Numbered from the stretch's first letter, positions 1 to 59,376 are shown. The stretch: DNA of 64,000 bases from an uncultured Clostridia bacterium (GCA_934274515.1 CAKQTC010000005.1:77193-141192), one strand, 5' to 3'. Notes: generated by a model from the sequence alone, not told the origin. Program-made: numbers and translations.

Positions 1-1159
1 TGCTTACTTCGTAGTTGCTGTACCCTGCAAGCAATGCCATTATGTCGTCTTTCTTTATATCGAGTCCTAAACCCTTTACAAGATCGAGAACTTTATCGAG
101 CGAAAGGTTTTTAAGGTCGTTTTGCGTAAGTCCCATTTTGTTGAGCATATCGGTAACGAGTTTTTTGAGATCCTGGCCCAACAAATCAGTCGGAAGTTTG
201 TCGATAACTTTGTTGTCCACGATTTGTACGCCGAGAGCCTTTAATATTTCGCCGAGTCTGTATTCGGTGATCATATAACTGTCGGCTTTTCCTCCCGTAC
301 CGTATGCCGCTTTGTATTCGTCGGTTTTCGTATAGTCTGACCAAGCCTTGCTTTTTTTAGTTTCTTTAATCGCTTTTTCAAGCAACTTGTCCGCGTCTTT
401 CTTCTGAGCCGCGTACTGTTCTCTCGTTTTGTAATAGGTAATGAGAATTTCGTTTGCTACGGGTACGCTGAAAATATAACCGTCGGCATAAAGTCCGTTT
501 TCTTTATAGACGTTGCCTTTTTCGCCGAACCAGTATTCCGGATTTCCTTCCGCGTCCGTGATGGGCGTTTTGCCGTATTCGCTGCCGTCGGTGTTTACTT
601 TGCCTTTTACTTCGGATTGATAACCTATGTTATATACTCTGCAAAACTCGTCTACCATACCGTTAAAATCGCCGGTAAGCGAACTCTTGCTCGTCCACGG
701 AAGATAATGGTTTATTTGGTAGTTGTATTCTTTGATGTCGAGATTCGGGTAGTCTTTAAGGTCAACTTCCGCCTCGTCTGCCAACCCGTTAAGGTCGCGT
801 ACGTAGTTTATCCTCGCCGCGTCTACCTGTTTTTCCGCCCATATATCGAAGTATACGGGACCGCCGACCATAATTATAAGCGTAAATATAATTACGATAA
901 CGCCGCGAGCGGTGCAGTTTTTCGTAACGATAGCCGCTATAATTTGAACAAGCGTAATTACGAGCCACGCGGCAACGCAGACGATAACGCCGTAATACTT
1001 GACCAGTCCGTTAAATCCCGTACCGCTGATAAACGGTATGGAAAAAATGAACGTAACCAAAATCAACAGCGGAAAACCTGCGACGTACGAGAGAGCCCCT
1101 AACACGCGATTTCTGTCGCGCTTAGCGATGACTTTCTTTGCGTTGATTTTTGCATCCAT
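1..1159 (-). CDS. hypothetical multi-pass membrane protein; C-terminal end lies beyond the window edge
   Basis: Missing from the ORF track because the frame has no stop inside the window. ATG at 1159-1157 (minus) with AAGGAGA at 1171-1177. Hand translation MDAKINAKKVIAKRDRNRVLGALSYVAGFPLLILVTFIF... stays open down to base 2 (...DIKKDDIMALLAGYSNYEVS). Several hydrophobic helices in the first ~110 aa, then a hydrophilic domain. Confidence 0.7.
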   Translation of the reverse strand, partial: MDAKINAKKVIAKRDRNRVLGALSYVAGFPLLILVTFIFSIPFISGTGFNGLVKYYGVIVCVAAWLVITLVQIIAAIVTKNCTARGVIVIIFTLIIMVGGPVYFDIWAEKQVDAARINYVRDLNGLADEAEVDLKDYPNLDIKEYNYQINHYLPWTSKSSLTGDFNGMVDEFCRVYNIGYQSEVKGKVNTDGSEYGKTPITDAEGNPEYWFGEKGNVYKENGLYADGYIFSVPVANEILITYYKTREQYAAQKKDADKLLEKAIKETKKSKAWSDYTKTDEYKAAYGTGGKADSYMITEYRLGEILKALGVQIVDNKVIDKLPTDLLGQDLKKLVTDMLNKMGLTQNDLKNLSLDKVLDLVKGLGLDIKKDDIMALLAGYSNYEVS

Positions 1160-1231
1160 AGAAAATTTGTTCTCCTTTTCTTAATTTCTGCTATTATATA
1201 TATTTATATAATTTTAAGACTATCTTAATAG

Positions 1232-1261
1232 AGTATACTACACATACGCCATAAAAGTCAA
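1232..1261 (-). promoter_or_regulatory. candidate sigma-A type promoter for the 1-1159 gene
   Basis: On the minus strand, TTGACT (1261-1256), an 18-nt spacer, then TATACT (1237-1232), about 70 nt upstream of the ATG. Confidence 0.35.
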
Positions 1262-1320
1262 TACTTATAATTTAGAAAGAACGAAGCCTTTTTATTTCTT
1301 TTTCCGCATTATCGCTCCGT

Positions 1321-1337
1321 CGGGCGGGCGGGTGGGG
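1321..1337 (+). repeat. G-quadruplex-type 17-mer CGGGCGGGCGGGTGGGG, copy 1 of 2
   Basis: The exact 17-mer recurs at 44356-44372. Four G-runs separated by 1-nt loops. Lies in a divergent intergenic region. Confidence 0.5.
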
Positions 1338-1600
1338 CGACGCGGTACGTTTTACGGAATAAATATCAAAAAAACCGATTTTTCTTCTCGTTTATAACCA
1401 AAACTCTTGATTTTCGGCTCGCAAAAATTCTTTTACGCTCACAAAACAAATTCACGCGCTCTGCAGAATATTTACCGCTTGCTTCGCAATGTTGCTTTTA
1501 CATAGTTTAGGTGTCTTATTTGTCGCAAACGGGATATTATACTTGTATTTTTTGTTATGCTTTCGAGTAACGACGATGACGATGCCTTTATTTTTCCGCA

Positions 1601-1629
1601 TTGAAAAAAAATTGATTTCGTGTTACAAT
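1601..1629 (+). promoter_or_regulatory. candidate sigma-A type promoter upstream of the sigma-1 operon
   Basis: TTGAAA (1601-1606), a 17-nt spacer ending in TGT (extended -10), then TACAAT (1624-1629). Confidence 0.45.
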
Positions 1630-1651
1630 TTTCTCGAAAAAAATTTTTTTC

Positions 1652-1686
1652 GCAACAAAACGGCGACGTGCGCCGTTTAATAAGCG
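1652..1686 (+). promoter_or_regulatory. ECF-type promoter motif 1, copy A (GCAAC-N17-CGTTTAATAAGCG)
   Basis: GCAAC at 1652-1656 and CGTTTAA at 1674-1680, 17-nt spacing. 31 of 35 positions match copy B at 3586-3620. Fits the AAC-N16/17-CGT pattern of Bacillus ECF promoters. Lies 23 nt upstream of the sigma gene ATG. Confidence 0.55.
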
Positions 1687-1708
1687 GAAGAACGAATGAG
1701 ATGACGGT

Positions 1709-2218
1709 ATGAACGACAAGCAACTGGCGCGGCTACTGCAAGGCGTTGCCGAAGGCGACGGGAATTCTCTCGGCACGCTCTACGAAAAGACGAAGAGGGG
1801 CGTGTTTGCTTTCGTGTATCCTTATTTTAATTCTTTCGCCGACGCGGAAGACTGCGTCGAGGACGTTTTTCTTAAAATAACGAAATACGCCTACACGTTT
1901 AAGCCTACGGGAAGCGCGCGCGGATGGATATTGCAAATAGCAAAAAATACCGCTCTCGACCAAACGGAAAAGCGCAAAAGAACGGTTTATACCGATAAAA
2001 TCCCCGAACGGAGCGAACCTGAGAGAGATTTTACGGTTTTTGAAACGCTTAACACCGCCCTTGCCGAAGACGAACGTTACGTCGTGACGGCGCACGTCTT
2101 ATGGGGGTACAAACATAAAGAAATAGCCGAGTTGCTCGGTTGTCCCGTCGGTACGGTGACTTCCAAATATAAACGCGCGATAGCAAAACTGCAAATAGCG
2201 TTAAAGGAGAAAGAATGA
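1709..2218 (+). CDS. ECF-type (group IV) sigma-70 family RNA polymerase sigma factor, module 1
   Basis: 169 aa. Region 2 (DAEDCVEDVFLKITKY...ARGWILQIAKNTALD) and region 4 HTH (YKHKEIAELLGCPVGTVTSKYKRAIAKLQ) only. Stop overlaps the next start (ATGA at 2215-2218). Confidence 0.9.
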   Translation: MNDKQLARLLQGVAEGDGNSLGTLYEKTKRGVFAFVYPYFNSFADAEDCVEDVFLKITKYAYTFKPTGSARGWILQIAKNTALDQTEKRKRTVYTDKIPERSEPERDFTVFETLNTALAEDERYVVTAHVLWGYKHKEIAELLGCPVGTVTSKYKRAIAKLQIALKEKE

Positions 2219-3576
2219 AATCGTGGAAAAAAAGACTTTTTGACGAACTCGGCGAGATGACGCCGAAAGCGGACGAACGGTTTGCGACAAACGGTTCTCC
2301 TTCGCCGAAAAAAAGTTTCTCTCTCAATAAAAAACGTTTTGCGGCTGCGGTTGCGTCCCTTTCCGTCATCGCCGTAATAGCCGTCGTGCTTTGCGTGACG
2401 CTTATTTCGCCGAGCGGTTCCGGCGCTATTGCCGATAAATCGATTTTTCTTACCGTAGAAATAAACCCCGAAGCGGTTTTCTCCGTGAATAAAGACGGTC
2501 TTGTGGACGCCGTAATCGCGCTTAACGGCGACGCCGACGTCGTTCTCAATTCAAAAAATTCGCCCGTTCTTATAGGCAAACCCGTTTCCGACGCGTTAAA
2601 TTCTTTTCTTGAAGAAACCACTCGTTTAGGGTTTATCGACCCTTACGAGTTGTCCGCCATACGCGTTTCGGCAAGCGAGGACAAATCGCATTCCCTGCCT
2701 GCCATCACCGCGTCGGTAGAAAACTATTTTCGATTGAACGGCTCGAAAACTCTCGTTGCCGACAAGGTTATATCCCGTGACGAACTGTCGAAAAAATGCG
2801 GTTTGCCCGACGGTTCGGACTTAGCCGCCGGAATAAAAAGTCTCTCGCCGTCTTATGCCACGCGAGCGGCAGCCTCTCTCGATGAAAACGCACTCGAAAC
2901 TCTTTACAAAAACGAGTTCGTTCACGGACAAATTAAAACGATTTTATCCGAAAGCATATCTTCTCTTCCCGATAAACTCGCGAAAATCTCGGGTCTTTTA
3001 GACGATATAAAAAGAGGTAACGACAACATACGCGACCACCGCGACAATCCGCTTATTTTTGTCAAAGATTTTTGGTCGGTGAAAAATTCCGGTTACGAAT
3101 TAACAGGCGAGTTTGCCTCTCTCGTAAAAGAAACGGACGATAAATTAACCGAATATACACGTCTTACGGGCAAAAAAATAAATTCTTATTCCGAATTCGT
3201 GATTGCAAGCGAAACGTTTTCCGCCTTTTACGCAACGGTTCCCGTAGACCTTATTAAAAGGCTGTCCGTTTTTATGTCGGACGCGGACTTCGATTATTAC
3301 GTTGACAAATTGCTTGACCTGCTCGACAAGGCGGGAGATAAAACGGGGAAAATTATCGGAGAACTTCTGTCCGTGGACAAACTCGATTTCGATAAATTTT
3401 CTTCTTGCGTTTCAACGGTTTACGAACAAGCGAGAGAAACTCGGTTAATCGCGTTCGGCGAAAAGTTTTCCTTGGACAGGGCGGAAATAAGCGGCGAAGA
3501 ATACGGCTCGTTTATCAAAAAAGTCGTCGCCGAATACGGCTCGTTGGACGCATATTACGAATTTTTGAAAAAATAA
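2215..3576 (+). CDS. single-pass membrane protein, candidate anti-sigma factor of module 1
   Basis: 453 aa with a 4-nt overlap onto the sigma gene. About 40 aa cytoplasmic N-terminus, one TM (AAAVASLSVIAVIAVVLCVTLI), then a large outside domain starting SIFLTVEINPEAVFSVNKDGLVDAVIALNGDADVVL, reminiscent of RsgI-type anti-sigma middle domains. No HxxxCxxC zinc motif. The role is inferred from position and topology. Confidence 0.65.
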   Translation: MKSWKKRLFDELGEMTPKADERFATNGSPSPKKSFSLNKKRFAAAVASLSVIAVIAVVLCVTLISPSGSGAIADKSIFLTVEINPEAVFSVNKDGLVDAVIALNGDADVVLNSKNSPVLIGKPVSDALNSFLEETTRLGFIDPYELSAIRVSASEDKSHSLPAITASVENYFRLNGSKTLVADKVISRDELSKKCGLPDGSDLAAGIKSLSPSYATRAAASLDENALETLYKNEFVHGQIKTILSESISSLPDKLAKISGLLDDIKRGNDNIRDHRDNPLIFVKDFWSVKNSGYELTGEFASLVKETDDKLTEYTRLTGKKINSYSEFVIASETFSAFYATVPVDLIKRLSVFMSDADFDYYVDKLLDLLDKAGDKTGKIIGELLSVDKLDFDKFSSCVSTVYEQARETRLIAFGEKFSLDRAEISGEEYGSFIKKVVAEYGSLDAYYEFLKK

Positions 3577-3585
3577 TTTTTCTTT

Positions 3586-3620
3586 GCAACAAAACGCCGC
3601 GTTGCGCCGTTTAATAAGCG
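3586..3620 (+). promoter_or_regulatory. ECF-type promoter motif 1, copy B
   Basis: GCAAC at 3586-3590 and CGTTTAA at 3608-3614, with the same 17-nt spacing as copy A. Sits in the 73-nt gap between the anti-sigma stop and the lipoprotein ATG. Confidence 0.55.
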
Positions 3621-3649
3621 AAAAATCCATTACAAGGAGATTATTGAAA

Positions 3650-5182
3650 ATGAAAAGGAAACACTTAACGATTATCGTTGCGAGCGCGCTGCTCGCCTGT
3701 TTACTGCTCGTCGGGTTTGCCGGTTGTTCGGACAAGTCCGCGCGTAAATCCGATTCTTTCGTCCGTCTTGACGTCAACCCGTCGATAGAGTTGGTTGTGG
3801 ACGCAAACAATAAAATCGTATCCGTATACGGCGCGAACACCGACGGAACGGTTCTTTTGTACGGCGAAAAAGCAAATCTCGTCGGAAAAGATTTCGACGA
3901 AGTAATCGGAAAACTCACCGATATGGCGGTTAAACTCGGCTATTTGGACGAAAACAACAAAGTAGTTCAATACACCGTTTCTTCCCCCGACGGAGAAAAA
4001 GCGGAAAAAGCACTCTCCGCGTCCATTGACGCGAAAGTCACCGCTACCGCGAAAAGTCTCGGTCTTACCGTCAGCACCGATGCGTCGGGCGCGTACTCCC
4101 TTCTCCGTAGATTTAACGAGTTCAAACAAACTCACCCGGACAACAAAGCCGTACAAAAAATGAGCGTGGCGGAGTTCCGTCTTGCGTTAAGCGCGGCGGA
4201 AACCGGCGAAATCACTTTGGAAGCGGCGGTTGAACTCAACGATGAAGAACTTGTAAAAATCATTAAAAAAGCAAGCGAAGACCTTAAAGAATTCGCTACA
4301 AACGAGTATCAAGCGGCGGTTGCCATTGCCGAAAAAACCTACGAAGCGGCTGTGAGTGCGGCTCTTGACGGAATATACGCGACGTATTACTCCTCGCACT
4401 TTACATCGCACCCCTCGACTTGGTATTACGGATACGTTTACCAAATGTACGCGACTGCGGCGCACGGAACGAAAGCCCTCGAAGGAATGTTTATGCTCAA
4501 AGAAAAAATCTCCGCGATTACGCTCGGCGACGACGCGGTTAAGGCAGTACTTACCGCTCTCGGATTGACCGAAAAAGACGTGGACCTTATCAAAGACGCG
4601 GACGGCAACGTAACTCTCGAAAGCGTTTATGCGTACGCCGACAAGGTATTCAAAAACACAAAACCCGGAGCGGAGTTGGAACAACTTAAACTCAAACTCG
4701 ACGCTGCGCTTAAGAGTGCGGAAACTTATTTCGGAGAAGAAAAGGCGCGTATCTTAAAAGAATACGAACCTCAAATCACCGCGGTATACAACGCGGCAGT
4801 CGCCACCGCGAATGCGGTAAAAGCGTTAATCAATAACCCTACCGCCGCGCTTATCCCCGACAACGTAAAAGCGATAATCAACGAAATGATTGCCGCTTCG
4901 GAAGAACTTAAAAATACTTTGACGAAAGAAAACGTCTCCGCGCAAGACGTGAAAGCGCTTTCCGAAAAATACGCAAAGAAAGCGAACGAAGTACTCGAAC
5001 TTATTAAAAACGACTTAACCGACAGCGAAAAAGCGGAAGTCGAGCGCATAAGAGCGAAAGCGGAAGAAGGACTTGCCAAAGTAAAACAAACGTACGACGA
5101 CGCTATGGCAAAAGCGGAACAATTCGCTCGCGACACCATAGAAAAACTCAGAAAAGAACGTCTTATCGATAACGCTAAGTAA
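3650..5182 (+). CDS. lipoprotein paralogous to the ectodomain of the 2215-3576 protein, with a long helical C-terminal part
   Basis: I prefer ATG 3650 (AAGGAG 12 nt upstream) over the track start 3584. N-terminus MKRKHLTIIVASALLACLLLVGFAGC is a lipobox signal peptide. FVRLDVNPSIELVVDANNKIVSVYGANTDGTVLLYG...KLGYLDENN aligns with the anti-sigma candidate's IFLTVEINPEAVFSVNKDGLVDAVIALNGDADVVL...RLGFIDP. The C-terminal half is rich in A/E/K. Confidence 0.8.
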   Translation: MKRKHLTIIVASALLACLLLVGFAGCSDKSARKSDSFVRLDVNPSIELVVDANNKIVSVYGANTDGTVLLYGEKANLVGKDFDEVIGKLTDMAVKLGYLDENNKVVQYTVSSPDGEKAEKALSASIDAKVTATAKSLGLTVSTDASGAYSLLRRFNEFKQTHPDNKAVQKMSVAEFRLALSAAETGEITLEAAVELNDEELVKIIKKASEDLKEFATNEYQAAVAIAEKTYEAAVSAALDGIYATYYSSHFTSHPSTWYYGYVYQMYATAAHGTKALEGMFMLKEKISAITLGDDAVKAVLTALGLTEKDVDLIKDADGNVTLESVYAYADKVFKNTKPGAELEQLKLKLDAALKSAETYFGEEKARILKEYEPQITAVYNAAVATANAVKALINNPTAALIPDNVKAIINEMIAASEELKNTLTKENVSAQDVKALSEKYAKKANEVLELIKNDLTDSEKAEVERIRAKAEEGLAKVKQTYDDAMAKAEQFARDTIEKLRKERLIDNAK

Positions 5183-5204
5183 AAGTCTTTCTCAAAAATA
5201 CACG

Positions 5205-5233
5205 GACCGCCGTTTTTTCGGCGGTCTTTTTTT
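5205..5233 (+). terminator. intrinsic terminator after the module 1 lipoprotein gene
   Basis: GACCGCCG-TTTTTT-CGGCGGTC stem-loop followed by T7. Confidence 0.8.
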
Positions 5234-5296
5234 GCGGTAAAAACGCTTTTTCGTTGCGTGCGGCACGGCTGCTTTATCTCGGTCAAATTTAAGGTA

Positions 5297-5325
5297 TTGA
5301 CACTTTTCTCGTGTAATATTATAAT
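5297..5325 (+). promoter_or_regulatory. consensus sigma-A type promoter for the 5384 gene
   Basis: TTGACA (5297-5302), a 17-nt spacer, then TATAAT (5320-5325). Confidence 0.6.
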
Positions 5326-5383
5326 AGTTAGTATAATAATAATATAAAATTATGCAAATTTCGGCATAAAAAGAAGGTTAATT

Positions 5384-6427
5384 ATGAAACAGACGGAAAT
5401 TACAAAAATTCAAAAATTGCTCGATAAAGACGGCAATATCGCGCAGGCGGGTTTTGCGAAAAAACTGCTTTGGGAATACAATCGCGGAAACATAACCGCG
5501 AGAAAATCGCTTATTAAGGAATGGGATTACTATTATATCGGCAACGAAAAATGCGCGATATGTCTTACCATTGCGGATATGGGCTATATCGGCGCGCTTA
5601 GCGCAACGGTTATGGACTTCGAAGGAATATGGCAGATTACCAAAAGTTCGGTTATTCTCTTCCCGATGGGCAAAATTAAACTTCCGCGCACTTCCGTCGC
5701 AGGCGACAGCAAATATAAAAACGGCGAAGTCGAAATGACGTTCCTTAACGACGGTACAAAACGCAGAATTTACGGCAAATATCCGAAATTCGGCAAAAAA
5801 GGCGAACCGCTCGTATTCGACGTTACCCTTACCGACGTCCCGGAAGAAAGTATGGTCATCGCCACCCCGTTCGCAAAAAACGGCAGGTTTTATTATAACC
5901 AAAAAATAAACTGTATGACTGCAAACGGTTCTTTCTCTCTCGGTGAAAAAGAATATGTTTTAAGCAAAGATAACGGCGCAATGGCGACGCTCGACTGGGG
6001 TCGCGGCGTATGGACGTACGACAACACTTGGTACTGGGGAAGTTTGCAAACCGCCCTCGAAGACGGCTCGACTTTCGGGTTTAACATCGGTTACGGATTC
6101 GGAAACAACACCGAAGCCACCGAAAATATGCTTTTCTACAACGGGAAAAGCCACAAACTCGACGAAGTGACGTTTAACATTCCGAAGAAACCCGACGGCA
6201 GCGACGACTTTATGTCGCCTTGGACTTTCACTTCCAACGACGGACGGTTCTTTATGGACTTCACTCCGATAATCGACCGTTACGCACCCGTGGATATTAA
6301 GATTTTCTGTATGATTCCGCACCAAGTATTCGGTAAATTTACGGGAAAAGCCGTTTTAGACGACGGAACCGTTATCGAAATCAAAGACAAACTCGGATTT
6401 GCGGAAAAAGTACATAATAAATGGTAA
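5384..6427 (+). CDS. conserved hypothetical protein, possibly DUF2804 family
   Basis: 347-aa ORF with AGAAGG upstream. Soluble, with no signal peptide. Motifs KEWDYYYI and LDWGRGVWTYDNTWYWGS match my recollection of DUF2804. The family call is tentative. Confidence 0.75.
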   Translation: MKQTEITKIQKLLDKDGNIAQAGFAKKLLWEYNRGNITARKSLIKEWDYYYIGNEKCAICLTIADMGYIGALSATVMDFEGIWQITKSSVILFPMGKIKLPRTSVAGDSKYKNGEVEMTFLNDGTKRRIYGKYPKFGKKGEPLVFDVTLTDVPEESMVIATPFAKNGRFYYNQKINCMTANGSFSLGEKEYVLSKDNGAMATLDWGRGVWTYDNTWYWGSLQTALEDGSTFGFNIGYGFGNNTEATENMLFYNGKSHKLDEVTFNIPKKPDGSDDFMSPWTFTSNDGRFFMDFTPIIDRYAPVDIKIFCMIPHQVFGKFTGKAVLDDGTVIEIKDKLGFAEKVHNKW

Positions 6428-6611
6428 CGTTCGCCACCCGCTCGAAAGCCGCCGCCTTTTCTGCAACTTACTCCGCTTGGTATGTCGAGCGCAGTCGAAA
6501 CTTCTTGGCGATAGCCGCAATACAACGCAAAGCGTTGCCGCCGTGCCGACAGAGAAAGCATTTTTCCGCGATATACTTTGCTCGATTACAGGATGCCTCG
6601 TCACGTTGCCG

Positions 6612-6638
6612 ACAGCCTTCCCGTTGCGGGAAGGCTGT
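6612..6638. terminator. 11-bp GC-rich hairpin between convergent genes; weak terminator candidate
   Basis: ACAGCCTTCCC-GTTGC-GGGAAGGCTGT. Only TT follows on the plus strand and no T-run follows on the minus strand. Confidence 0.3.
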
Positions 6639-6664
6639 TTGATGAAAGACGCTGTGCCGAAATA

Positions 6665-7216
6665 TTAGCCGTTATTTTGTTTAAGTTGTTCGAGAATTTG
6701 TTTTAATAATTCTTCCGTGCTTTCGTTTGTTTGGGTTTCCGTAGCGGTTTGTTCGGGTTCCGCAACAGGCGTTTCTACGTGTTTTTCTTCAACGGGTTGT
6801 TCTTCTTTCGTTTCTTGCGGTTCTTCTTTTTTGATGACTTGTTTCAGCGCGCTTTCGGCTTTGTCTTTTGCCTTGTTTCCGGTTTCTTTAAGTTTATTAA
6901 ACAGTTTAATCAACAAGAAAAGCACGATTGCGGTGCAGAGAAAGGTTATTATAGCGGATATTACCGCGCCCCAGTCGAGTATAAGTGCCTCGGTGATTAC
7001 GTTGCCTGCTTCGTCGGTAACCGCCGGGCGAAGAACCGTTTGCAACGCGCCCGTGCCGTCCGCGCCGGGAATCCAGTTGATTAACGGGGTAAGAATTCCC
7101 TTGACGAGAGAATTTACAATTGCGGTGAACGCAGACCCGATAATCATACCTACGGCAAGGTCGAGCACACTACCGCGGTTGATGAATTCTTTGAATTCTT
7201 TGAGTAATTTTTTCAT
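6665..7216 (-). CDS. mscL: large-conductance mechanosensitive channel MscL with an extended acidic C-terminal tail
   Basis: Start moved to ATG 7216 (GGAG upstream). MKKLLKEFKEFINRGSVLDLAVGMIIGSAFTAIVNSLVKGILTPLI is the canonical MscL N-terminus and TM1. 183 aa. Confidence 0.9.
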   Translation of the reverse strand: MKKLLKEFKEFINRGSVLDLAVGMIIGSAFTAIVNSLVKGILTPLINWIPGADGTGALQTVLRPAVTDEAGNVITEALILDWGAVISAIITFLCTAIVLFLLIKLFNKLKETGNKAKDKAESALKQVIKKEEPQETKEEQPVEEKHVETPVAEPEQTATETQTNESTEELLKQILEQLKQNNG

Positions 7217-7268
7217 ATTATCGCTCCGTATGACAGAATTAATCGGACTTTTCGTCCAACCGTGTACA

Positions 7269-7297
7269 ATTATAATACTTTCTATGTCTTTCGGCAA
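7269..7297 (-). promoter_or_regulatory. candidate sigma-A type promoter for mscL
   Basis: On the minus strand, TTGCCG (7297-7292), a 17-nt spacer, then TATAAT (7274-7269). Confidence 0.45.
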
Positions 7298-7390
7298 GAA
7301 AATTTATTTTTTTTGTTACAACCCTAATTTCTACCGTACGAAAAATCGCAAATATGTTATACTTAATAAAAAAAGGAAAATCGTGCAAAA

Positions 7391-7588
7391 ATGAAAATCG
7401 TTTTTAACCCCGACGAAAAAATCGTCGCCGTCGTAAAAGAAGGGCTTCGCCGTACGGGCGGTTACTGTCCGTGCAAGCGCGAGCGCACCGAAGAAAACAA
7501 GTGTATGTGCAAGGAATTTCGCGAACAAGTCGCGGACCCGAACTTCGAAGGGTTTTGCCACTGTATGCTTTACTACAAGTATAAATAA
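7391..7588 (+). CDS. small ferredoxin-thioredoxin reductase catalytic-subunit-like protein
   Basis: 65 aa with three CxC motifs: CPC (26-28), CMC (38-40) and CHC (56-58). This is the signature arrangement of the FTR beta-chain family. AAAGGAAAA lies upstream. Confidence 0.7.
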   Translation: MKIVFNPDEKIVAVVKEGLRRTGGYCPCKRERTEENKCMCKEFREQVADPNFEGFCHCMLYYKYK

Positions 7589-7669
7589 CCGCGTCCGTCG
7601 TTTTCCGTTGCTATACCGCTCGTCCCGTCCTATGCTATCGATGGGGCTTTTATCTGTGCCAAACAAAAA

Positions 7670-7703
7670 ATGCCGTTAAGAACCAAAATTTTCTTAACGG
7701 CAT
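7670..7703 (-). terminator. intrinsic terminator after giant gene 1 (bidirectional hairpin)
   Basis: Perfect 13-bp stem ATGCCGTTAAGAA/TTCTTAACGGCAT. On the minus strand it is followed by TTTTTTG. On the plus strand it also lies downstream of the 7391-7588 gene. Confidence 0.8.
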
Positions 7704-7734
7704 ATTTCATATAATCGGTTTATACTATAAGCGG

Positions 7735-10700
7735 TTATTCGTATAGGGCGTCGTCGCCGTTGTTTTCGTAAACGTTGGCGTTGTTGATGTCCGTTCTTAT
7801 CGGCGTTCCTACGGGCAGGTCAAGCGAAATTCCGTTATACTCGAACCGACATTTTCTTATCGTCAGGTCACCCGTCACGCTTGTTATCGCCGTACCTATA
7901 TTGTTGCCGAATTTAGTTTCGGAGATATTGACGTTGTTTCCGCTCGTCGAAATCACGATACCGTTATAGTTTCTTTCTATCGTGCTTTCTCTTACTTCGA
8001 GCGCGCCGCCGGCAAAGTTTATCGCCATACTCACGTTGTCTATCGTCGTTTTTTCAACGTATACGCTACCCTTGTAATTAATCGAGGTTTCCACTCCCGT
8101 AACGTTGTCCGTTTTGTTCCCCGATTTGGTAATTCTGCAATTATACATACTTACCGCGCCCGCTTCGTCGCCTATAAACAACGCGGAGTTGCCCGACGTG
8201 TCGCTTTCTATCGAGATTATCCTTAGTTCGACTATACCTTTAAGCACGCGTATACCTTTAATCTTCGTTTCGATTTGCCTTACGTCTATTCCGCTTTCGC
8301 TTATGCCGCCGTTCTTCGTATAACCTACTATTTTAAGCCTTACCGCTTTATCGATAACTATCGGGTCGTACGCCGCGACGTTGCCTTCCGCGTCGATAAG
8401 CGACGACAGGTACACTATCTTATAATCACCGTCTTTAAGGTTGGCGATATATTCTTGCAGTTCCGCGTTGCTCGCTACTCCGTCCGAACCGTCTTCGCCT
8501 TCGACTTTGTATATGCCTGCCGCCTTAACGCCGTCGACAAACTCGTGCGTTCTCACAAAGATATTATAGTTCCCAAACAAGTCTATTACCGCCGCGTTTC
8601 CCTCCGCGTCTTTGTACAGGCTTCCTTCTTTGTCATAACTCTTCAACGCGAGTTTCGAGTAAATATACCCGTTAAACCCGTATTGCGCGCTGTCAAGTTC
8701 GGTATACGTCGTCGTCGCCGTCGATGAAGACGCAAGTCCGTCGATAAACGTATAATATGTTCCTACCTTGAAGTAACTGCCGAAAGTTATACCTTCCGCG
8801 TCCGCTGCCGACAGCCTAAGTATGCCTAAATCCGCAAGTTTATCTCCGCCGAGCAGTATGCCTTCTTCTTGTTCGTTTCCGTCTTCGTCGTAAACTTTAA
8901 CGTATTCCGATAAATTCGCGACGTCGGACAGATATTTCTTGTTGATATCCGCAATATCGATAAACACTTTTGCGGCGGATATTCCTATCGGTTGGTCGTT
9001 TATCTTTCCGTCGGGGTAGTTGTTCCCCCCGTCTATTTCGACCGAGCAGATATACGCGCCCGCGTTCTTTATTCCGCTCGTCGGGTTGGTAACGGAGGTG
9101 TTCGCGCTGTCTACGGTAATCTTGTTCACGACGTTACCCGATACGTCCTTAACACCCTCTACCACGACGACGAGAAGTTTTCCGTTTATAACGTACCTAT
9201 ACGTCACTTTAACGCCGAACGGAACCGTTCCGTCTTTGTGCAAATCGCTTATTTCCGGGTTCTGCACCCTGCCGTTGTAGACAAGATTTGCGGTAGCAAA
9301 CGCGTACCTTATGTTTTCGTCGCGTTCTATCCTTAAAGTAACGTTCTTGCTCTTTTCTCCCTCGACGTAGTTCGCGTTGTCTTTATCGAGATTAACCTTA
9401 ACGGTGTAGTTTCCGCAATCGGTAGGAACGTAATCGAGTTGCTCCGTTCCGTAATAATACGTAAACCGAACTTGAATTTCCACAAGCGTTATTCCGGCGT
9501 CCATCTTGCTGTCGTATATCCACGCCTTAATCTTTATGTCTTGCTCTCTGCCGACTCTGTCGTAACCGAACGTCGCCTTGCCTTCTCTGTACCAGGCGTC
9601 GAGCGCGTCTTTCGTTCTGTCCGCCACCCTGTTGTAGATAACGCCGTAAACTTCCGCTTTCGCCTCTTCTTCCGTCATTCCGTCTTTGACGTAGTTGTTA
9701 TACAACCGCGACTTCTCGCCGGGCGCAAACCAACCTGCCGGCGTAAACGCAGGCAATCCTTCGGCTACCGTAAACACGTTCGACGCGCCGTAAACGACGT
9801 TAATCGCCCCGTTCGCGTCTTCTCCGACAAACTTAACTTTGGACATATCCACTACGTACGGCTTTATGGTAAGCGTAAACAGTTTGTCGTTGTCGTATTC
9901 GATATAAACGTTGTAATCGTCCGCTCTTAACCGTACTCTTATATAGTACGTCCCCGCGTCAAGCGGTAGTTGCTCGCTCGACCATGCGTCCGCGCCCTCT
10001 TTCATATACTCTACGACGTAGTTCTCCGCAGGTATAACCGCGTGCGTTCCGTCTTCTCTAAGGAACGCCATGTCGTCTGCTTCGGCGTTAAACGGAAGTT
10101 CGTAGTATTGCGCGTTATACTCTTTTTCGAGCGTCGTGCCTTCGTTTTTCGTTCCGTCCGCTTTGGTAAACCCGATTATATGGTCGGTTATGTTTATCTT
10201 TTCGATGTAAACGCGAAGTCTGACAGACTGCCATATACCGTTCTTTATCATATAATAACCGAGTATTTCCGCTCCGTCGTTCGTCGTAGCGTGGTTCGGC
10301 ACTTCCACGTTCGCCCTGTTGACGTTTAGTCCTGCCAAATCCCAGTCGAGTTTGATTTCCTTGCCCGTTATTCTATCCCTTATCGTCGGCAGGTCGCTTG
10401 CTTTCATCGGCGTGCCTATCTTCCAGTAAATCGCGTCTACGTAATCGGGCGAAGTTTTGCTCTTCGACGTCCACTTCCATTTCTTGCCGGTCGCGTCGGT
10501 GACGAACTCAACGTCGCTTACGTCGCTCCTTTCGTAACTTTCCATCGGCATCGTGAAGTACAGTCCGCGTTTTCTCGTTCCGTTTGCGTCGTAAGCAAGT
10601 TTCGCGTCCGCTTCCTTGTCTATTCCGTAAGTTGCGTAAACGGTAACCGTCGAACCGATAAAATCGTACTGCAACGCGTCGCTTTCCGCGTTAAACGCCG

Positions 10701-13700
10701 CTTTTTCGCCGTCGCTATCCACAAACAGGAACGTATCTCCCATCGCCGCCGGCGATTCTCCCGTACCCGTCGCTTTCTTGCTCCCGTCGCTCGGTATGCT
10801 GTAATAATCGTAGTAAACGAAGTTGTTGTATCCGCCGTCGTACTCGGCATAGTTTTTAAGGTCGATAAGCCTTAAATTAAACTTCACGTTCGCTTCGATA
10901 CCCGCAGTAACGGACGTGCTTCCGATGACCGCCTTGACTTGCTGTATTCCCGTTTCCGTTTTGCTTATCTTGTTTGCGTCTTTAAGCGCAACGGGAACTT
11001 TTTGCCAATTAGGTTTACCCTCTTCTTCTTTGGCAAAGTTAAAGTACATTTCGCCGTAGTTACGTTTGAACTGCGTTCCGTAATCGCCGCCGTCGCGCAT
11101 AAGATAAATCGTTCCGCCGTCAAGCATTTCGCCTATCGGTACGGTTATTTCCATCGCTTTGAACTTAACCTTTATCTCGTATCCGAGGTAATAGAAACTC
11201 GCGTCAAACTTGTAATCCGTGGCTGCGCCCCTTCGAATGTTGTTGAGTTTGGTCAAATCCGGCGCCCAGTCGCTTTGCGTAAGTTCTATGTTCTTACTGC
11301 CGTTCGCAAGCGTAAGTTGCAATTTTTCCGGATATTCGGGATAGTACGGGTTGATTTCCAACGAGTGAGAAGTTGCGTCCGCCGAACTCGACGACGTCGC
11401 TTCCGCTATCGTGTTGTTCGTGTCGCTGTCCGATATTCCCTGCAACGATTGATTTTCGATAACGAGAACGGTGTTCCAGTCAATCATATCGTCTTTGGAC
11501 AGTTCGTATTTGTCCTTCCTCTTCTCTTCGCCCGTATCCTTGTCGTAGGTAGTCATCGTAACCGAGAATTTAGCGTAATCGTACTCTATCTTACGCGTGT
11601 TGCCGTTACCGTCAACGTAACGGTATTCGAGTACTCTCATATCTATTCCCTTGTTATCCGTACCGCTAAGCCCGAATTTGACTTTGCTCATATCCCACAC
11701 TACGTCGGTGAATTCTATCTTTTCGCCTTCGCCGCACTTAACCGTCATCGCAGTCGGCATAGCATAACTCTTTTTCTCGCTAAGCACCAGGTTAACGTTC
11801 GTCGGGTCGACGTAAATAACGTTTTTACCGCTAGTCGCGTTACCCGTCGTTTCGTCGTATTGCGAATACTTATTGACAAACTCGCCGCTCGTTTCGGGTT
11901 TCGCTCTTCCTTTAATGTACGCGCCCGTTTCGAGATAAACTTTCTGTACGTTTCTGTCAAGATACCCTACTCTTATATCGCCCTGTTTTTGGTAAACCGT
12001 TCCGCGCGCTTCTCTTACTTTTATGACGTACGCGTCGTCCGTTTCTGCCTTGATACCTTTATAAACGAGTTTATTGAACTCCTGCGAATACTCCGTAATG
12101 TCCACCTTTCCGAGTTTTATTCCCGCCGCATAGTCGATTGCCGCGCCCGTCTTAACGTAACCTATCGCGTACGCCTTGTCGGGAAGTTCGGGCGCAAGCG
12201 CGTCCAACATAAGAAGATTCTTCTTCTCGTTCGTTTCCATTGCCTTTGCGTACTTCGTCATATCGGTATAATCTATTACCGTATCGCCTTTATCGTCCAC
12301 TCTCGTAGGCTCGTTGTACGGGTTGCTTTCGTCTGCGTCGAAGTATAAATCTATTTCCGTAAAGTCGGACAGCGTATATTTAAGCCCCGTCGCTTTTAGC
12401 GCGTTTGCGTACCCGTAACCGCCGCTTACGTCTACTATTCTGTAAGTTTTACCGTCGTTCGCGATAAACACGTTGCAGTTGTCGTAATACGGATTGTTCC
12501 CTTCTGACCCGGTCGGATTGTCTTCGTTCCATTTCAAACGGTCGAAGTAAACGACGTGCACGTATCCTTTTTCCGCGTGGTCTTCGCTTACAAAATCTCT
12601 TACTTCGACTATTCTCGTTTCCGTCATCAGTTCGAGCGCTAAGGAATAATCGCCATTCGCCTTTTCGAGATATTTGCCGAACGACAACATTCCGAACTCG
12701 TCTTCGCGTTCGAGATCGGTACGCGATATGCCGTAAAGGTTCTTGCCCGTTACTTTAACGTAAATCTTGTCCGCGTAATCGTGCAAAGGATTGCTTGCAA
12801 GTAAATCGTCGGAATGAGAATACTCTTCCGCACCGTAAACCGACGTGTATTCGACGTAATTAACCGCTTTTTCGAGATACCCTAGATAGAACTTTTCCCT
12901 TTCGGCTATCTCTTCTTCGGTAATTTCGCCCGTCTTTATCACGCCGCTTGCCTTGATAAGCACGTTTGCCATAACGTCAACGAGTTGCGACAGCGTCGTG
13001 CTTCCGACAACCGTTCCCGTTCCTGTATATTCGCATAACCGTTTCGCGTCGTTAAGCGCAAGTTCGGTGACGACGGTATTGAGCCTTGCCGCGGCAAGCG
13101 TAAGCGCGTGTCCTTTTTGGTTAAGCAAATCGCCGTCAAGCATAAGCCCGACGATAAACGCCTTATATTCGTCTTCGTTGCCCGCGCTGTAATAATCCGC
13201 AGGAACTTTGCTTTCCTCGTCGTCTTTATCTTGCAGGAACAAATAGATGCTAGTCGTCATCGTCGCGTAAGCGACTTCCGCGCTAAGCGCGCTCGTAAGC
13301 GCACCGCCGGCAAGCGCGTTCGCCTGATAATACGCCTGTCTGTAAATCTGCTCTATAAACGCGCGTTCTTCTTCTCCGAGAACACCGTAAATCGACGCCG
13401 CGGCGGTACCCGCTTTCCACCAATCGGCAAGACGGTTGACTATCCTGCGGGCTTCGCCCGTCGGGTCAACGGCTTGCCCCGCCGCGTACTCGTTCAACGT
13501 GTTTCCTATCATTCCGTCCGCACCGTTAAGGTTGGTTCCGAACAATTCCGCCGCCGCGTTGTCGCTCGTCGCGCCGTTATTGATAAACGCATAGAGTTTG
13601 TACGCAAATTCGCTCGCGGTAAGCGAGAATAACGTTATTTTGTCGTACGTCTTAGCATAAAGCGCGGTCTTAATCGCAAGATTTATCGCATTCTTCGCCG

Positions 13701-57097: not shown

Positions 57098-57170
57098 AGT
57101 AAAACCTCCGTGTCGGGGCGTTCCCCGCATACGCGCGCGTCTTGCGCTCGCGAAAATAGTCTAATTTAAT

Positions 57171-57310: not shown

Positions 57311-57368
57311 GTAGGCGTAGGTAAACGGTATTGCTTTATTATATCCGAAAAAATAAACTAAAAATTGT

Positions 57369-57400
57369 CCAACAATTCGACCTTTTACTATTGTTAATAT
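57369..57400 (+). promoter_or_regulatory. ECF-type promoter motif 2, copy A (CCAACAATTCG-N-TTGTTA)
   Basis: CCAAC at 57369-57373 and TTGTTA at 57391-57396, 17-nt spacing. The same 12-mer TCCAACAATTCG and the same spacing recur at 59286-59314. Confidence 0.5.
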
Positions 57401-57411
57401 TTTGATGAATC

Positions 57412-57939
57412 ATGATTCACGACAAACTTGAAAAAAAAGTCATAAAATTGAAAAACGGCGACACCTCTGCGTTCGACTATATTTACGAACGCACCAACCG
57501 TTCTGTCTATTTTACGATTTTTCGCATAGTTAAAGACAAGATGTCTGCCGAAGACGTGCTGCAAGACACCTATATGCGCGCGATTTCCGCCATTGAGCAA
57601 TATAGAGAAGGAACCAACTTTATCGGTTGGTTATGTTCTATCGGAAAATCTCTTGCCTTAAACCGCCTTAAAAAATACAGGCGCGAAATCTCTACCGATT
57701 TTGAAGCGCAAGCCTACAAATACGGTACAGAAGAACCCGAACTCCCTTATATTTTCGATATAGCGTCGAAAATTCTATCGGAGGACGAATACAAAATCGT
57801 TATGCTCTGTCACGTTTCGGGGTATAAACGTCGCGAAGTTTCGGATATGCTCGGTCTTCCCGTCGGAACGGTTACTTGGAAAAACAACGAAGCATTGAAA
57901 AAACTCAAATCCTATCTTGAAAAGGAGGACCGCTTATGA
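57412..57939 (+). CDS. ECF-type (group IV) sigma-70 family RNA polymerase sigma factor, module 2
   Basis: 175 aa. Region 2 (AEDVLQDTYMRAISAIEQY...FIGWLCSIGKSLALNRL) and region 4 (YKRREVSDMLGLPVGTVTWKNNEALKKLK). ATGA overlap with the next gene. Confidence 0.9.
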   Translation: MIHDKLEKKVIKLKNGDTSAFDYIYERTNRSVYFTIFRIVKDKMSAEDVLQDTYMRAISAIEQYREGTNFIGWLCSIGKSLALNRLKKYRREISTDFEAQAYKYGTEEPELPYIFDIASKILSEDEYKIVMLCHVSGYKRREVSDMLGLPVGTVTWKNNEALKKLKSYLEKEDRL

Positions 57940-59156: not shown

Positions 59157-59175
59157 CAAACCGTATTTTAATCAT

Positions 59176-59202
59176 AAAAACCGCCGAAAAACGGCGGTTT
59201 TT
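59176..59202 (+). terminator. intrinsic terminator after the sigma-2 operon
   Basis: AAAAACCGCCG-AAAAA-CGGCGGTTTTT, with further Ts downstream. Confidence 0.7.
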
Positions 59203-59286
59203 CTCGCTTTTTTATGAACGCTACTCTCTGCGTTCCGTCCGTTTTTTCTTCTCGGATAAACTTTTTGGAATTTTTTTATTTTTTTT

Positions 59287-59318
59287 CCAACAATTCGGCG
59301 TTGCCGCTTTGTTATATA
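59287..59318 (+). promoter_or_regulatory. ECF-type promoter motif 2, copy B
   Basis: CCAAC at 59287-59291 and TTGTTA at 59309-59314, 17-nt spacing. About 60 nt upstream of the lipoprotein ATG 59377. Confidence 0.5.
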
Positions 59319-59376
59319 GATGAATGCGGAAAAATTCCGGAGTTTCCGTCTTAAAAAACAAAAAGGAGTTTTCGTT

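Follow-up and report, generated by a model that had tools for sequence, protein, structure and literature searches.

Why should the presumed anti-sigma partner of a small sigma factor share an extracytoplasmic domain with a lipoprotein encoded by the very next gene? The question is raised by three adjacent genes at positions 1709 to 5182 of a 64,000-nucleotide stretch of DNA from an uncultured Clostridia bacterium (GCA_934274515.1 CAKQTC010000005.1:77193-141192), referred to here as the window. To answer it, we consider what the three genes encode, what the shared domain is and how expression of the lipoprotein gene appears to be controlled.

A three-gene cassette in gut Clostridia

The first gene (1709..2218, + strand) encodes a 169-amino acid protein made up of regions 2 and 4.2 only (Pfam Sigma70_r2 and Sigma70_r4_2), which scores 75.7 bits against the NCBIfam sigma70-ECF model TIGR02937 (cut-off 42.9) and is thus an ECF sigma factor, as the initial annotation had proposed. 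Regions 2 and 4 alone, a length of about 170-200 amino acids and matches to ECF models characterise ECF group 4, and this protein has all three. A SigI identity was also considered and rejected, as ECF models match and no SigI model is found among the best 25 of the 81 NCBIfam families matching the protein.

The second gene (2215-3576, + strand) encodes a 453-amino acid membrane protein, the presumed anti-sigma factor, and overlaps the sigma gene by 4 nt, just as first annotated. The overlap takes the form ATGA (context ...GAATGAAA...), with the sigma stop codon TGA at 2216-2218 lying within it and a ribosome-binding site, AAAGGAG, ahead of the membrane-protein gene at 2203-2209; six of eight related gene-called loci have the same 4-nt overlap. 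The third gene was listed as an ORF at 3584-5182 with a TTG start. The true start is almost certainly the ATG at 3650 (gene 3650-5182, + strand), judging from the sequence, since AAGGAG precedes this ATG and the TTG falls within a promoter element. An intrinsic-terminator-like hairpin of 9 bp, 7 of them GC, followed by a T-run (5204..5227, + strand), closes the cassette.

ECF sigma, membrane anti-sigma and lipoprotein genes form, in this order, a unit that is conserved in gut Clostridia. The order is kept in 67 of 80 species-level genomes, between which the flanking genes are unrelated. All six loci seeded with relatives of the anti-sigma factor have a sigma gene upstream, and an RsgI_M protein is encoded downstream in five, a contig end cutting the sixth. 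Because synteny is conserved so widely, the coupling of the three genes is not accidental. The lipoprotein has a larger family than the anti-sigma factor. The complete cassette is absent from 14 of 85 loci: two of them (L012 and L070) are cut by contig ends, and in about 12 the lipoprotein gene truly stands alone.

The shared domain and its two carriers

According to the initial annotation, the N-terminal domain of the lipoprotein aligns with the start of the outside domain of the membrane protein. This is borne out both by BLASTP (membrane protein residues 68-169 against lipoprotein residues 22-127, 22% identity, E 9e-5) and by profile-profile comparison of the two families (probability 99%, E 2.9e-18, 104 columns). 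Outside this block of about 105 residues neither method aligns the two proteins, and homology between their distal helical C-terminal regions is not detectable. The initial annotation had gone further, seeing in the lipoprotein a copy of the ectodomain, which would thus exist in two forms, and had itself made this reading depend on how far the alignment extends; as nothing aligns significantly past the block that it quoted, the reading falls.

Sequence profiles and structural models identify the block as a SEAL (RsgI periplasmic) domain, PF23750, a predicted autoproteolytic joint next to the membrane. The RsgI_M model scores 38.0 bits with the anti-sigma factor and 69.3 bits with the lipoprotein, against a Pfam gathering score of 25.3. 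AlphaFold2 (AF2) gives both proteins a SEA-like alpha/beta fold, with a pLDDT within the SEAL domain of about 90 or higher, and the best PDB matches of both models in Foldseek are 8t9n (the B. subtilis RsgI SEAL) and 8hdj (RsgI2-PD), each with probability 1.00 and with target TM-scores of 0.53-0.77. The reference residues of SEAL domains are an Asn-Pro in the beta1-beta2 hairpin, an Asp or Glu at -2 and an N-x-D motif (PMC10328401, PMC10556640). The scissile Asn-Pro is kept in 71/71 anti-sigma and 85/85 lipoprotein relatives and N-x-D in 71/71 and 84/85, while position -2 is occupied by E82 in the anti-sigma factor and D41 in the lipoprotein. We therefore reject the idea that the block is itself a sensor, as first annotated: it matches an autoproteolytic domain, and its scissile Asn-Pro is invariant. 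The SEAL domain of RsgI cleaves itself constitutively between Asn and Pro, and the ectodomain is retained until dislodged (PMC10556640, PMC10328401); by analogy, both domains described here would be autoproteolytic. They are only ~20% identical and lie about as far from one another as either does from RsgI2, which points to an old paralogy within the domain family, not a recent copy.

The anti-sigma factor begins with a short cytoplasmic segment (residues 1-41; 2215..2337, + strand) bearing the conserved pattern MKSWKKRLxxELxxxxP (family alignments A1 and A4). This is presumed to be the sigma-binding part, by analogy with RsgI, and is modelled by AF2 at low confidence. Pfam matches nothing in residues 1-70, even with the threshold relaxed to E<=10, and a search with the whole protein at E<=0.01 returns RsgI_M alone, RsgI_N (PF12791) being absent. 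Neither His nor Cys occurs among residues 1-41, hence there is no HxxxCxxC zinc motif, and no zf-HC2 match is found by Pfam, so that the zinc-binding (ZAS) class can be rejected. Many Firmicute anti-sigma factors lack this motif, and its absence is therefore unremarkable on its own; the earlier description of the protein as a non-canonical anti-sigma factor without a zinc motif holds in that it is likely to be an anti-sigma factor, while the missing motif does not set it apart. A single transmembrane helix follows, at residues 42-64 as read from the sequence (2338..2406, + strand) and 42-62 in the AF2 model, with the Lys/Arg-rich side preceding it and the N-terminus inside. Next comes the SEAL domain (residues 77-186; 2443..2772, + strand), recognised by Pfam PF23750, by PDB profile (8her_B), by AF2 (pLDDT about 90) and by Foldseek. 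The predicted scissile bond, in the context E82-I83-N84-P85 (translation checked), joins N84 to P85 (codons 2464-2469) in the modelled hairpin between strands 77-82 and 87-91. The remainder (residues 188-453; 2776..3573, + strand) is the candidate signal-receiving part, modelled entirely as helices at a pLDDT of about 90, with no significant structural match in the PDB by Foldseek and no Pfam match. This helical domain is present in 118 clusters from a search of 1.84 billion representatives, in proteins of ~450 amino acids that hold it at a constant position, a few short and apparently partial exceptions aside. The protein is not an RsgI anti-sigma-I factor, having no RsgI_N, no SigI partner and a folded, helical distal part.

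The product of the third gene was rightly annotated as a lipoprotein. Its signal peptide and lipobox (GFAG before the Cys; 3650..3727, + strand) read MKRKHLTIIVASALLACLLLVGFAG followed by C, the latter being Cys26 of the FAGC motif (codon 3725-3727), which is invariant in family alignments A2 and A5. All 85 relatives have a lipobox-like Cys upstream of the Asn-Pro. In 83 of them Ala, Gly or Ser stands at -1 (most commonly in LTAC, LAAC or LAGC), and the other two sequences (DMRC and GNQC) look like mis-picked Cys residues, so that on sequence grounds the assignment appears sound. A complete SEAL domain (residues 36-205; 3755..4264, + strand) is recognised by the same four approaches, the family profile matching RsgI-PD chains 8hep_B, 8her_B, 8heq_B, 8hdj_B, 8u9o_B and 8t9n. 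The predicted scissile bond between N43 and P44 (codons 3776-3781), in the context D41-V42-N43-P44 and between AF2 strands 36-41 and 45-50, lies 17 residues past the predicted lipidated Cys; the median distance from Cys to Asn among the 85 relatives is 18. In the alignment of the family profile, Pro44 is paired with the first residue of the cleaved C-terminal chain as deposited in the PDB. Beyond the SEAL domain extends a long helical, apolipoprotein-like region predicted by AF2 (residues 206-510 and stop codon; 4265..5182, + strand), with weak matches alone to apolipoproteins and helical bundles and a probability of <=0.25 against ClyA, SmhA and McpZ.

The first interpretation of this locus is thus partly supported: the coupling, the ECF sigma factor, the likely anti-sigma factor and the homologous lipoprotein stand, while the sensor and copy readings do not.

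Apparent promoter elements of the cassette

Upstream of the sigma gene, a consensus scan picks out a weak sigma-70-like candidate (TTGAAA-17-TACAAT with TG; 1601..1629, + strand) that may serve as a basal promoter. Closer to the gene, 23 nt before its start codon, lies an ECF-type promoter element, P1 (GCAACAAAACGGCGACGTGCGCCGTTTAATAAGCG; 1652..1686, + strand), presumed to be autoregulatory, and a second such element, P2 (GCAACAAAACGCCGCGTTGCGCCGTTTAATAAGCG; 3586..3620, + strand), precedes the start codon of the lipoprotein gene by 30 nt. The 35-nt element thus occurs twice in the window, where 0 copies are expected by chance. In 39 related loci, a -35 block, GCAACAAA, and a -10 block, GT[TA]TAA, are found upstream of the sigma gene at fixed spacing, with a variable spacer between them. 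In 1.65 Mb of related loci, the combined motif GCAAC-N18-GT[TA]TAA occurs 86 times, where 1.3 occurrences would be expected, and 84 of the 86 are directly upstream of a sigma gene (39) or a lipoprotein gene (45), the other two being at equivalent places. Together with the ATGA-coupled membrane-protein gene, a motif of this kind 5' of the sigma gene fits the pattern of an ECF sigma factor with a co-transcribed anti-sigma factor and a putative autoregulatory promoter of the AAC...CGT type.

Of the 71 related loci with the full cassette, 44 have the motif ahead of the lipoprotein gene, and 17 lack its strict form at both positions. The motif is also missing from most solo lipoprotein genes, from which it follows that the protein can function independently of the circuit. 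The -10 block (TTTAAT or TATAAT) resembles a housekeeping -10 as well, and it is accordingly position, spacing and co-conservation that carry the assignment of these promoters to the cassette sigma factor. Ahead of the lipoprotein gene there is thus a separate copy of the apparent promoter of the sigma factor.

A proposed circuit and its alternatives

By analogy with RsgI (PMC10556640, PMC10328401), the cassette is probably a self-contained, autoregulated ECF sigma unit that uses the RsgI-type SEAL mechanism. The membrane protein would sequester the sigma factor through its short N-terminus, and its SEAL domain would cleave itself constitutively between N84 and P85, a shared beta-sheet keeping the ectodomain attached. 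Force on the helical domain, or a partner binding to it, would be the stimulus that dislodges the ectodomain and leaves a stub of ~20 residues for processing by a site-2 protease (RasP/RseP), freeing the sigma factor; no gene for such a protease was found among the window ORFs scanned, which are part of the total. Once free, the sigma factor would use P1 to transcribe its own operon and P2 to transcribe the lipoprotein gene. The lipoprotein in turn would cleave itself between N43 and P44, so that its 467-residue body would be held by an 18-residue lipopeptide strand alone and could be shed from the cell.

Much of this resembles SigI/RsgI of Bacillus subtilis and Clostridium (Hungateiclostridium) thermocellum (PMC10556640, PMC10328401, PMC9732909): a single-pass, N-in anti-sigma factor with a juxtamembrane SEAL domain, a conserved Asn-Pro as the scissile site in the beta1-beta2 hairpin, an extracytoplasmic stub that is likewise short and, by inference, constitutive autocleavage followed by ectodomain release and RasP/RseP processing. 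Here, however, the partner is a 169-aa ECF sigma factor and not SigI, the cytoplasmic part is 41 residues long and does not match RsgI_N, a folded helical domain almost confined to this anti-sigma family takes the place of a distal intrinsically disordered (IDR) or carbohydrate-binding (CBM) part, and the operon adds a second SEAL protein, a lipoprotein, apparently under the same type of promoter. SEAL domains outside RsgI-type anti-sigma factors are known from the SEAL-PepSY proteins, some of which lack an anti-sigma domain or a transmembrane segment (Brogan et al. 2023, PMC10556640). In contrast to these, the cassette lipoprotein appends a long helical region, not PepSY, is anchored by a predicted lipidated Cys ~18 residues before the predicted scissile bond and is encoded in a sigma/anti-sigma cassette that apparently controls it. 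A search of a limited body of literature found no description of a SEAL lipoprotein with a helical region in such a cassette. At one related locus, L008, an ECF sigma factor is accompanied by a SEAL-PepSY membrane protein.

Small ECF sigma factors with co-transcribed single-pass anti-sigma factors, autoregulation through AAC...CGT-type promoters and site-2 proteolysis after ectodomain loss are familiar from SigW/RsiW and SigV/RsiV, in which site-1 cleavage depends on a distinct enzyme, either PrsW or, once lysozyme has bound, signal peptidase. The cassette would share all of these features except the last, its site-1 step being predicted to be built in as SEAL autoproteolysis. MAIN (microbial GAIN-like) domains likewise hold surface proteins non-covalently after autoproteolysis until force releases them; they belong to a GAIN-like fold family and not to SEAL, and the portion of the source at hand draws no link to a sigma/anti-sigma circuit (bioRxiv 10.64898/2026.05.12.724683).

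Other explanations have to be weighed against this circuit. The third genes of ECF operons are often co-regulators, and accessory proteins, among them RseB and a lipoprotein, CseA, are modulators in other ECF systems. The lipoprotein might accordingly be a sensor component, besides or instead of an output, its helical region binding the helical ectodomain of the anti-sigma factor and modulating its retention; in a more exotic version, the cleaved SEAL body of the lipoprotein would cap the beta-1 stub of the anti-sigma factor as negative feedback. The regular presence of an RsgI_M protein downstream of the anti-sigma gene favours this, as does the fact that both proteins are placed on the outer side of the membrane, their common joint lying equally far from it. 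We nevertheless consider it unlikely, given that the lipoprotein family is the larger of the two and includes solo members, that the gene has its own sigma-type promoter, as is typical of a target gene, and that the beta-1 strands, conserved inside each family, differ between them (TVEINP vs SLDINP).

A homologous extracytoplasmic domain common to neighbouring gene products could also be a ligand sensor in two forms, in which case the lipoprotein would bind the same ligand as a decoy or as a second receptor. Such logic is conceivable for a second module in the window, which shares a whole ectodomain, but is most improbable here, where the shared block is a SEAL domain with an invariant scissile bond and the distal helical domains have no detectable relation. 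In RsgI, moreover, sensing falls to the distal IDR or CBM parts, the SEAL domain being the joint for cleavage and retention (PMC10556640, PMC10328401). Least credible of all is a lack of any functional coupling, with two members of one common Firmicute domain family lying next to each other and the 35-nt element being a local duplication or the site of another regulator. SEAL domains are indeed common in Firmicutes (PMC10556640) and the -10 block is like that of housekeeping promoters, yet gene order and orientation persist despite different flanking genes, the motif is far in excess of expectation, and blocks at fixed spacing recur at the same two positions, with variable spacers, among loci whose proteins are only 28-40% identical.

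We thus return to the reading that the analogy makes likely: regulated proteolysis of the RsgI kind is linked to an ECF sigma factor, and its conserved output is a lipoprotein that is tethered through a SEAL domain and might be shed. The self-cleaving joint known from RsgI is here paired with an ECF sigma factor and a SEAL lipoprotein, making the cassette a variant of a known system. The same window contains a second module (57368-60408) of the same design, in which a whole ectodomain of unrelated fold is shared and sigma-type promoters are again duplicated. More speculatively, since the anti-sigma factor and the protein under its control would share a detachable joint, whatever strips the lipoprotein might also strip the anti-sigma ectodomain and so bring about resynthesis. 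Only tentatively, and with some doubt, can this be extended to a general 'sentinel' design, in which an ECF anti-sigma factor shares a vulnerable extracellular module with the lipoprotein that it controls, so that parallel loss is sensed and corrected by resynthesis. A more exotic sub-case would have cleaved SEAL bodies and beta-1 stubs exchanging between the two proteins. In the cassette described here, the shared part would be the self-cleaved SEAL joint, and the lipoprotein would be releasable by force.

Gene layout and the SEAL domain

The cassette comprises three plus-strand genes: one for an ECF sigma factor of 169 aa (1709-2218), one for a membrane protein of 453 aa referred to here as the anti-sigma (2215-3576) and a third ORF (3584-5182) whose plausible start, ATG 3650, is preceded by AAGGAG and gives a lipoprotein of 510 aa. 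The ORF list and the ATGA junction of the first two genes, with an AAAGGAG ribosome-binding site inside the 3' end of the sigma gene, confirm the ORFs and the 4-nt overlap reported in the initial annotation. A strong terminator-like hairpin (5204-5227) closes the unit. Beyond it a perfect sigma-70 consensus promoter (TTGACA-17-TATAAT, 5297-5325) precedes the gene for a DUF2804 protein. This protein (5384-6427), a minus-strand MscL mechanosensitive channel with a long acidic C-terminal extension (6665-7297) and a small ferredoxin-thioredoxin-reductase-beta-like protein (7391-7588) adjoin the cassette; their genes are absent from related loci.

The alignment by which the initial annotation linked the membrane protein to the lipoprotein reflects real homology. 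BLASTP finds a single significant segment, in which residues 68-169 of the membrane protein align with 22-127 of the lipoprotein (22% identity, E 9e-5). When the family alignments (15 and 25 sequences) are compared as profiles, the match is again limited to this block (probability 99%, E 2.9e-18, 104 columns). In both proteins Pfam PF23750, the 'Anti-sigma factor RsgI-like central domain', exceeds its gathering score. The common block is real, then, but it is the known SEAL domain, which is autoproteolytic at an Asn-Pro bond next to the membrane, and not the putative sensor domain in two forms that had been proposed.

With E values of 4e-8 to 7e-5, the lipoprotein family profile matches solved structures of the periplasmic domains of several C. 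thermocellum RsgI proteins and of the SEAL domain of B. subtilis RsgI and, as the match spans ~160 residues, the lipoprotein carries a complete SEAL domain; the anti-sigma family profile matches 8her_B more weakly (E 1.3e-4). In the deposited entries the 'B' chains are C-terminal autocleavage products, and their residue 1 falls opposite Pro44 of the lipoprotein profile. RsgI proteins self-cleave at N97|P98, in the same turn as the SEAL Asn-Pro found here, and both an acidic residue at -2 from the Asn and an N-x-D some 20 residues further on, as listed for RsgI, are present (PMC10556640, PMC10328401). All 71 anti-sigma relatives retain the Asn-Pro and the N-x-D; among 85 lipoprotein relatives the counts are 85 and 84, respectively. 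The lipoprotein begins with the lipoprotein signal MKRKHLTIIVASALLACLLLVGFAG|C, with Cys26 invariant across its family, and the median distance from the lipidated Cys to the scissile Asn in the lipoproteins is 18 residues.

AlphaFold2 models built from the family alignments were confident over the ectodomains and had a mean pLDDT of 82.5 for the anti-sigma (SEAL ~90) and 84.7 for the lipoprotein (SEAL 90 or more). In Foldseek searches of the PDB, the anti-sigma model retrieved 8t9n (B. subtilis RsgI SEAL; target TM 0.69-0.77) and then 8hdj (RsgI2 periplasmic domain; ~0.54), and the lipoprotein model 8hdj (0.53) and then 8t9n (0.75), in each case with probability 1.00. The predicted scissile bonds are N84|P85 in the anti-sigma and N43|P44 in the lipoprotein, each modelled in a tight turn between the first two strands (77-82 and 87-91, and 36-41 and 45-50, respectively).

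The rest of each protein, C-terminal to SEAL, is a long helical region (anti-sigma 188-453, lipoprotein 206-510); neither BLASTP nor comparison of the family profiles found homology between the two regions. Pfam at E<=10 returned nothing meaningful for anti-sigma residues 1-70, for its helical domain or for the lipoprotein helical region, NCBIfam had no match for either protein, and Foldseek found no significant PDB match to either helical region; PaxB, ClyA, SmhA and McpZ were rejected as relatives, their probabilities (<=0.3) being usual for long helical bundles. Run exhaustively against 1.84 billion representatives, phmmer placed the anti-sigma helical domain in 118 clusters, and because these are proteins of ~450 aa with the domain in the same position, barring a few short and apparently partial ones, the domain appears to belong to this anti-sigma family alone. 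The two SEAL domains are 22% identical to each other, and in structural alignments each is 19-22% identical to RsgI2; being about as distant from one another as from RsgI2, they show that the lipoprotein is not a recent copy of the ectodomain. The anti-sigma helical domain has a second Asn-Pro, within D277-N278-P279 ... D285-Y286-W287 (residues 277-287, window 3043-3075), which is invariant in the closer relatives (alignment A4). Only 38 of 71 relatives carry D277-N278-P279, and we rejected it as a second cleavage site; its role is probably structural.

The sigma factor, made up of regions 2 and 4.2 alone, passes the TIGR02937 ECF superfamily model, with no SigI model among the best 25 of its 81 NCBIfam matches. 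The anti-sigma consists of 41 basic cytoplasmic residues, a single hydrophobic helix (~42-64) and a large extracytoplasmic part; it has the RsgI joint without being a member of RsgI. Its conserved N-terminus, MKSWKKRLxxELxxxxP, matches neither RsgI_N nor a zinc-binding domain in Pfam and the cytoplasmic residues include no His or Cys, in agreement with the initial observation that the zinc motif is missing. Three observations lead us to infer that this N-terminus binds the sigma factor: the two genes are translationally coupled, the protein has a suitable topology, and SEAL domains are already known from anti-sigma factors.

The duplicated promoter element and conservation of the cassette

The same 35-nt element lies before the sigma gene (P1, 1652-1686) and before the lipoprotein gene (P2, 3586-3620); it matches nowhere else in the window, and chance alone would give 0 matches. 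Across related loci the outer blocks keep both their sequence and their distance, and the spacer is free to vary. An earlier pattern, AAC-N15-18-CGT, was too strict and lost most sites; it was replaced by GCAAC-N18-GT[AT]TAA, drawn up after inspection of all GCAACA occurrences. Across 1.65 Mb of related loci this pattern matches 86 times, where 1.3 matches would be expected. A short way before a sigma gene there are 39 of these sites, and 45 lie likewise before a lipoprotein gene; the remaining two are equivalent in place, one inside an over-called sigma ORF and the other just after an anti-sigma gene. Both sites are found at 29 loci, and 17 full loci have the strict motif at neither position. 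The architecture, an 'AAC' -35 followed 17 nt later by xGT, is one that we take to match the ECF promoters of B. subtilis SigM, SigX and SigW. Position and phylogenetic footprinting together suggest that P1 is autoregulatory and that the copy at P2 makes the lipoprotein gene a direct target. A GC-rich hairpin in the spacer of the two window copies was discarded as a candidate RNA element or terminator, since spacers are not conserved elsewhere and Rfam has no match in window positions 1-8000.

On the contigs of six different anti-sigma relatives (28-31% identical) that were examined, an ECF sigma gene always lies directly upstream. An RsgI_M protein is encoded directly downstream in five, the downstream gene of the sixth being cut by the contig end, and the flanking genes differ at each. 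In a collection of 185,579 species, each represented by one genome, the lipoprotein profile revealed 406 places encoding a relative, most of them in gut or rumen MAGs of Clostridia or Christensenellaceae, the best match (91% identity) being in an 'uncultured Catabacter sp.' MAG. On HMM re-annotation of 80 retained loci, 67 had sigma, anti-sigma and lipoprotein in order on one strand, and about 12 had the lipoprotein alone.

These solo genes are at loci L005, L035, L046, L048, L050, L060, L074, L078, L079, L084, L086 and L088; that at L060 keeps the promoter motif upstream, the others lack it under the strict pattern, and the one at L005 is followed by a gene for a 600-aa protein without a Pfam match. 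In a Christensenella-like MAG (L027, 1521-3155) an extra, divergent lipoprotein paralogue lies directly upstream of the sigma gene, besides the usual downstream one. At L090 (1305-2990) a gene for a PrsW-family protease lies ~500 nt upstream of the sigma gene, PrsW being the site-1 protease of B. subtilis RsiW; as none is found at other loci, its presence there is probably coincidental. At L008 (4426-6536; P0069, also P0070) an ECF sigma gene is followed by one for a 511-aa RsgI_M plus PepSY protein, an architecture mentioned by Brogan et al. (PMC10556640), which shows that pairings of ECF sigma factors with SEAL domains reach beyond the family studied here.

A second module and its surroundings

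Module 2, whose proteins have no homology to those of the cassette, comprises an ECF sigma gene (57412-57939), a gene overlapping it by 4 nt that encodes a 406-aa membrane protein without Pfam or NCBIfam matches (57936-59156), and a lipoprotein ORF (59320-60408) with a likely start at ATG 59377. Here the lipoprotein does align with the whole membrane-protein ectodomain (32% identity over 350 aa, E 1e-42). A 29-nt element, TCCAACAATTCG-N11-TTGTTA, occurs exactly twice (0.01 expected by chance): one copy precedes the sigma gene (57368-57396) and the other the lipoprotein gene (59286-59314). The latter copy is separated from the anti-sigma gene by a terminator-like hairpin (~59178-59205). Two further contigs, L092 and L093, have the same gene order, and in L092, the one tested, the two proteins are again paralogous. 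A shared design in two unrelated families makes it more probable that the design is functional, and a second, unrelated module of the same logic hints at a recurring regulatory principle.

Three giant ORFs occupy the minus strand at 7735-24879 (5714 aa, starting with a lipoprotein-like signal, …MIAMIAC), 24948-37853 (4301 aa, no Pfam match) and 44393-57130 (4245 aa, with BspA-type leucine-rich repeats and an InlB B-repeat-like domain). The promoter elements of the two modules do not occur in their vicinity.

A possible mechanism and its meaning

By analogy with RsgI (PMC10556640, PMC10328401), the anti-sigma would self-cleave at N84|P85 soon after folding, its helical ectodomain being retained through the beta-sheet and so blocking the site-2 protease. 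A stimulus acting on the helical domain would remove the ectodomain and leave a stub of ~20 residues for processing by RasP/RseP, and the sigma factor released in this way would drive P1 and P2. The lipoprotein, once cleaved at N43|P44, would be held solely by the lipopeptide C26-N43, and hence would be releasable.

What such a pairing is for can be read in several ways. A decoy or second receptor, as a domain present in two forms might suggest, conflicts with the identity of that domain as SEAL. A co-sensor role for the lipoprotein has a low but appreciable probability. That the genes adjoin by chance has a negligible probability, the conserved synteny and the promoter data ruling it out. Because sensor and output have a common joint, the simplest logic is a replenishment loop, in which whatever strips SEAL-tethered surface proteins also activates the sigma factor; this is speculative. 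A partial precedent for a module common to sensor and effector is provided by the IDRs on RsgI and PBP1 in B. subtilis (PMC9732909).

Earlier work has established the SEAL domain, its self-cleavage and the part it plays in signalling by anti-sigma factors, and has noted some SEAL proteins without an anti-sigma domain or TM segment (PMC10556640). The literature searched contained no description of a SEAL domain coupled to an ECF sigma factor via a minimal N-terminus, of the family-specific helical ectodomain, of a lipid-anchored SEAL protein or of a conserved three-gene, two-promoter cassette.

SEAL autoproteolysis was first described in 2023, nearly all of it for SigI/RsgI. The cassette would extend it to ECF sigma factors via a minimal anti-sigma segment distinct from both RsgI_N and zinc-binding domains, and would add a lipoprotein whose whole body hangs by a short lipopeptide after self-cleavage, which would be a new way of making a surface protein releasable. 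It would also form a compact circuit whose sensor and output have the same breakable joint. Its small size, three genes with a pair of short promoters, would allow transfer to a tractable host for direct tests of mechanotransduction and shedding models. Among uncultured gut Clostridia (Christensenellales-like MAGs) the cassette is widespread.
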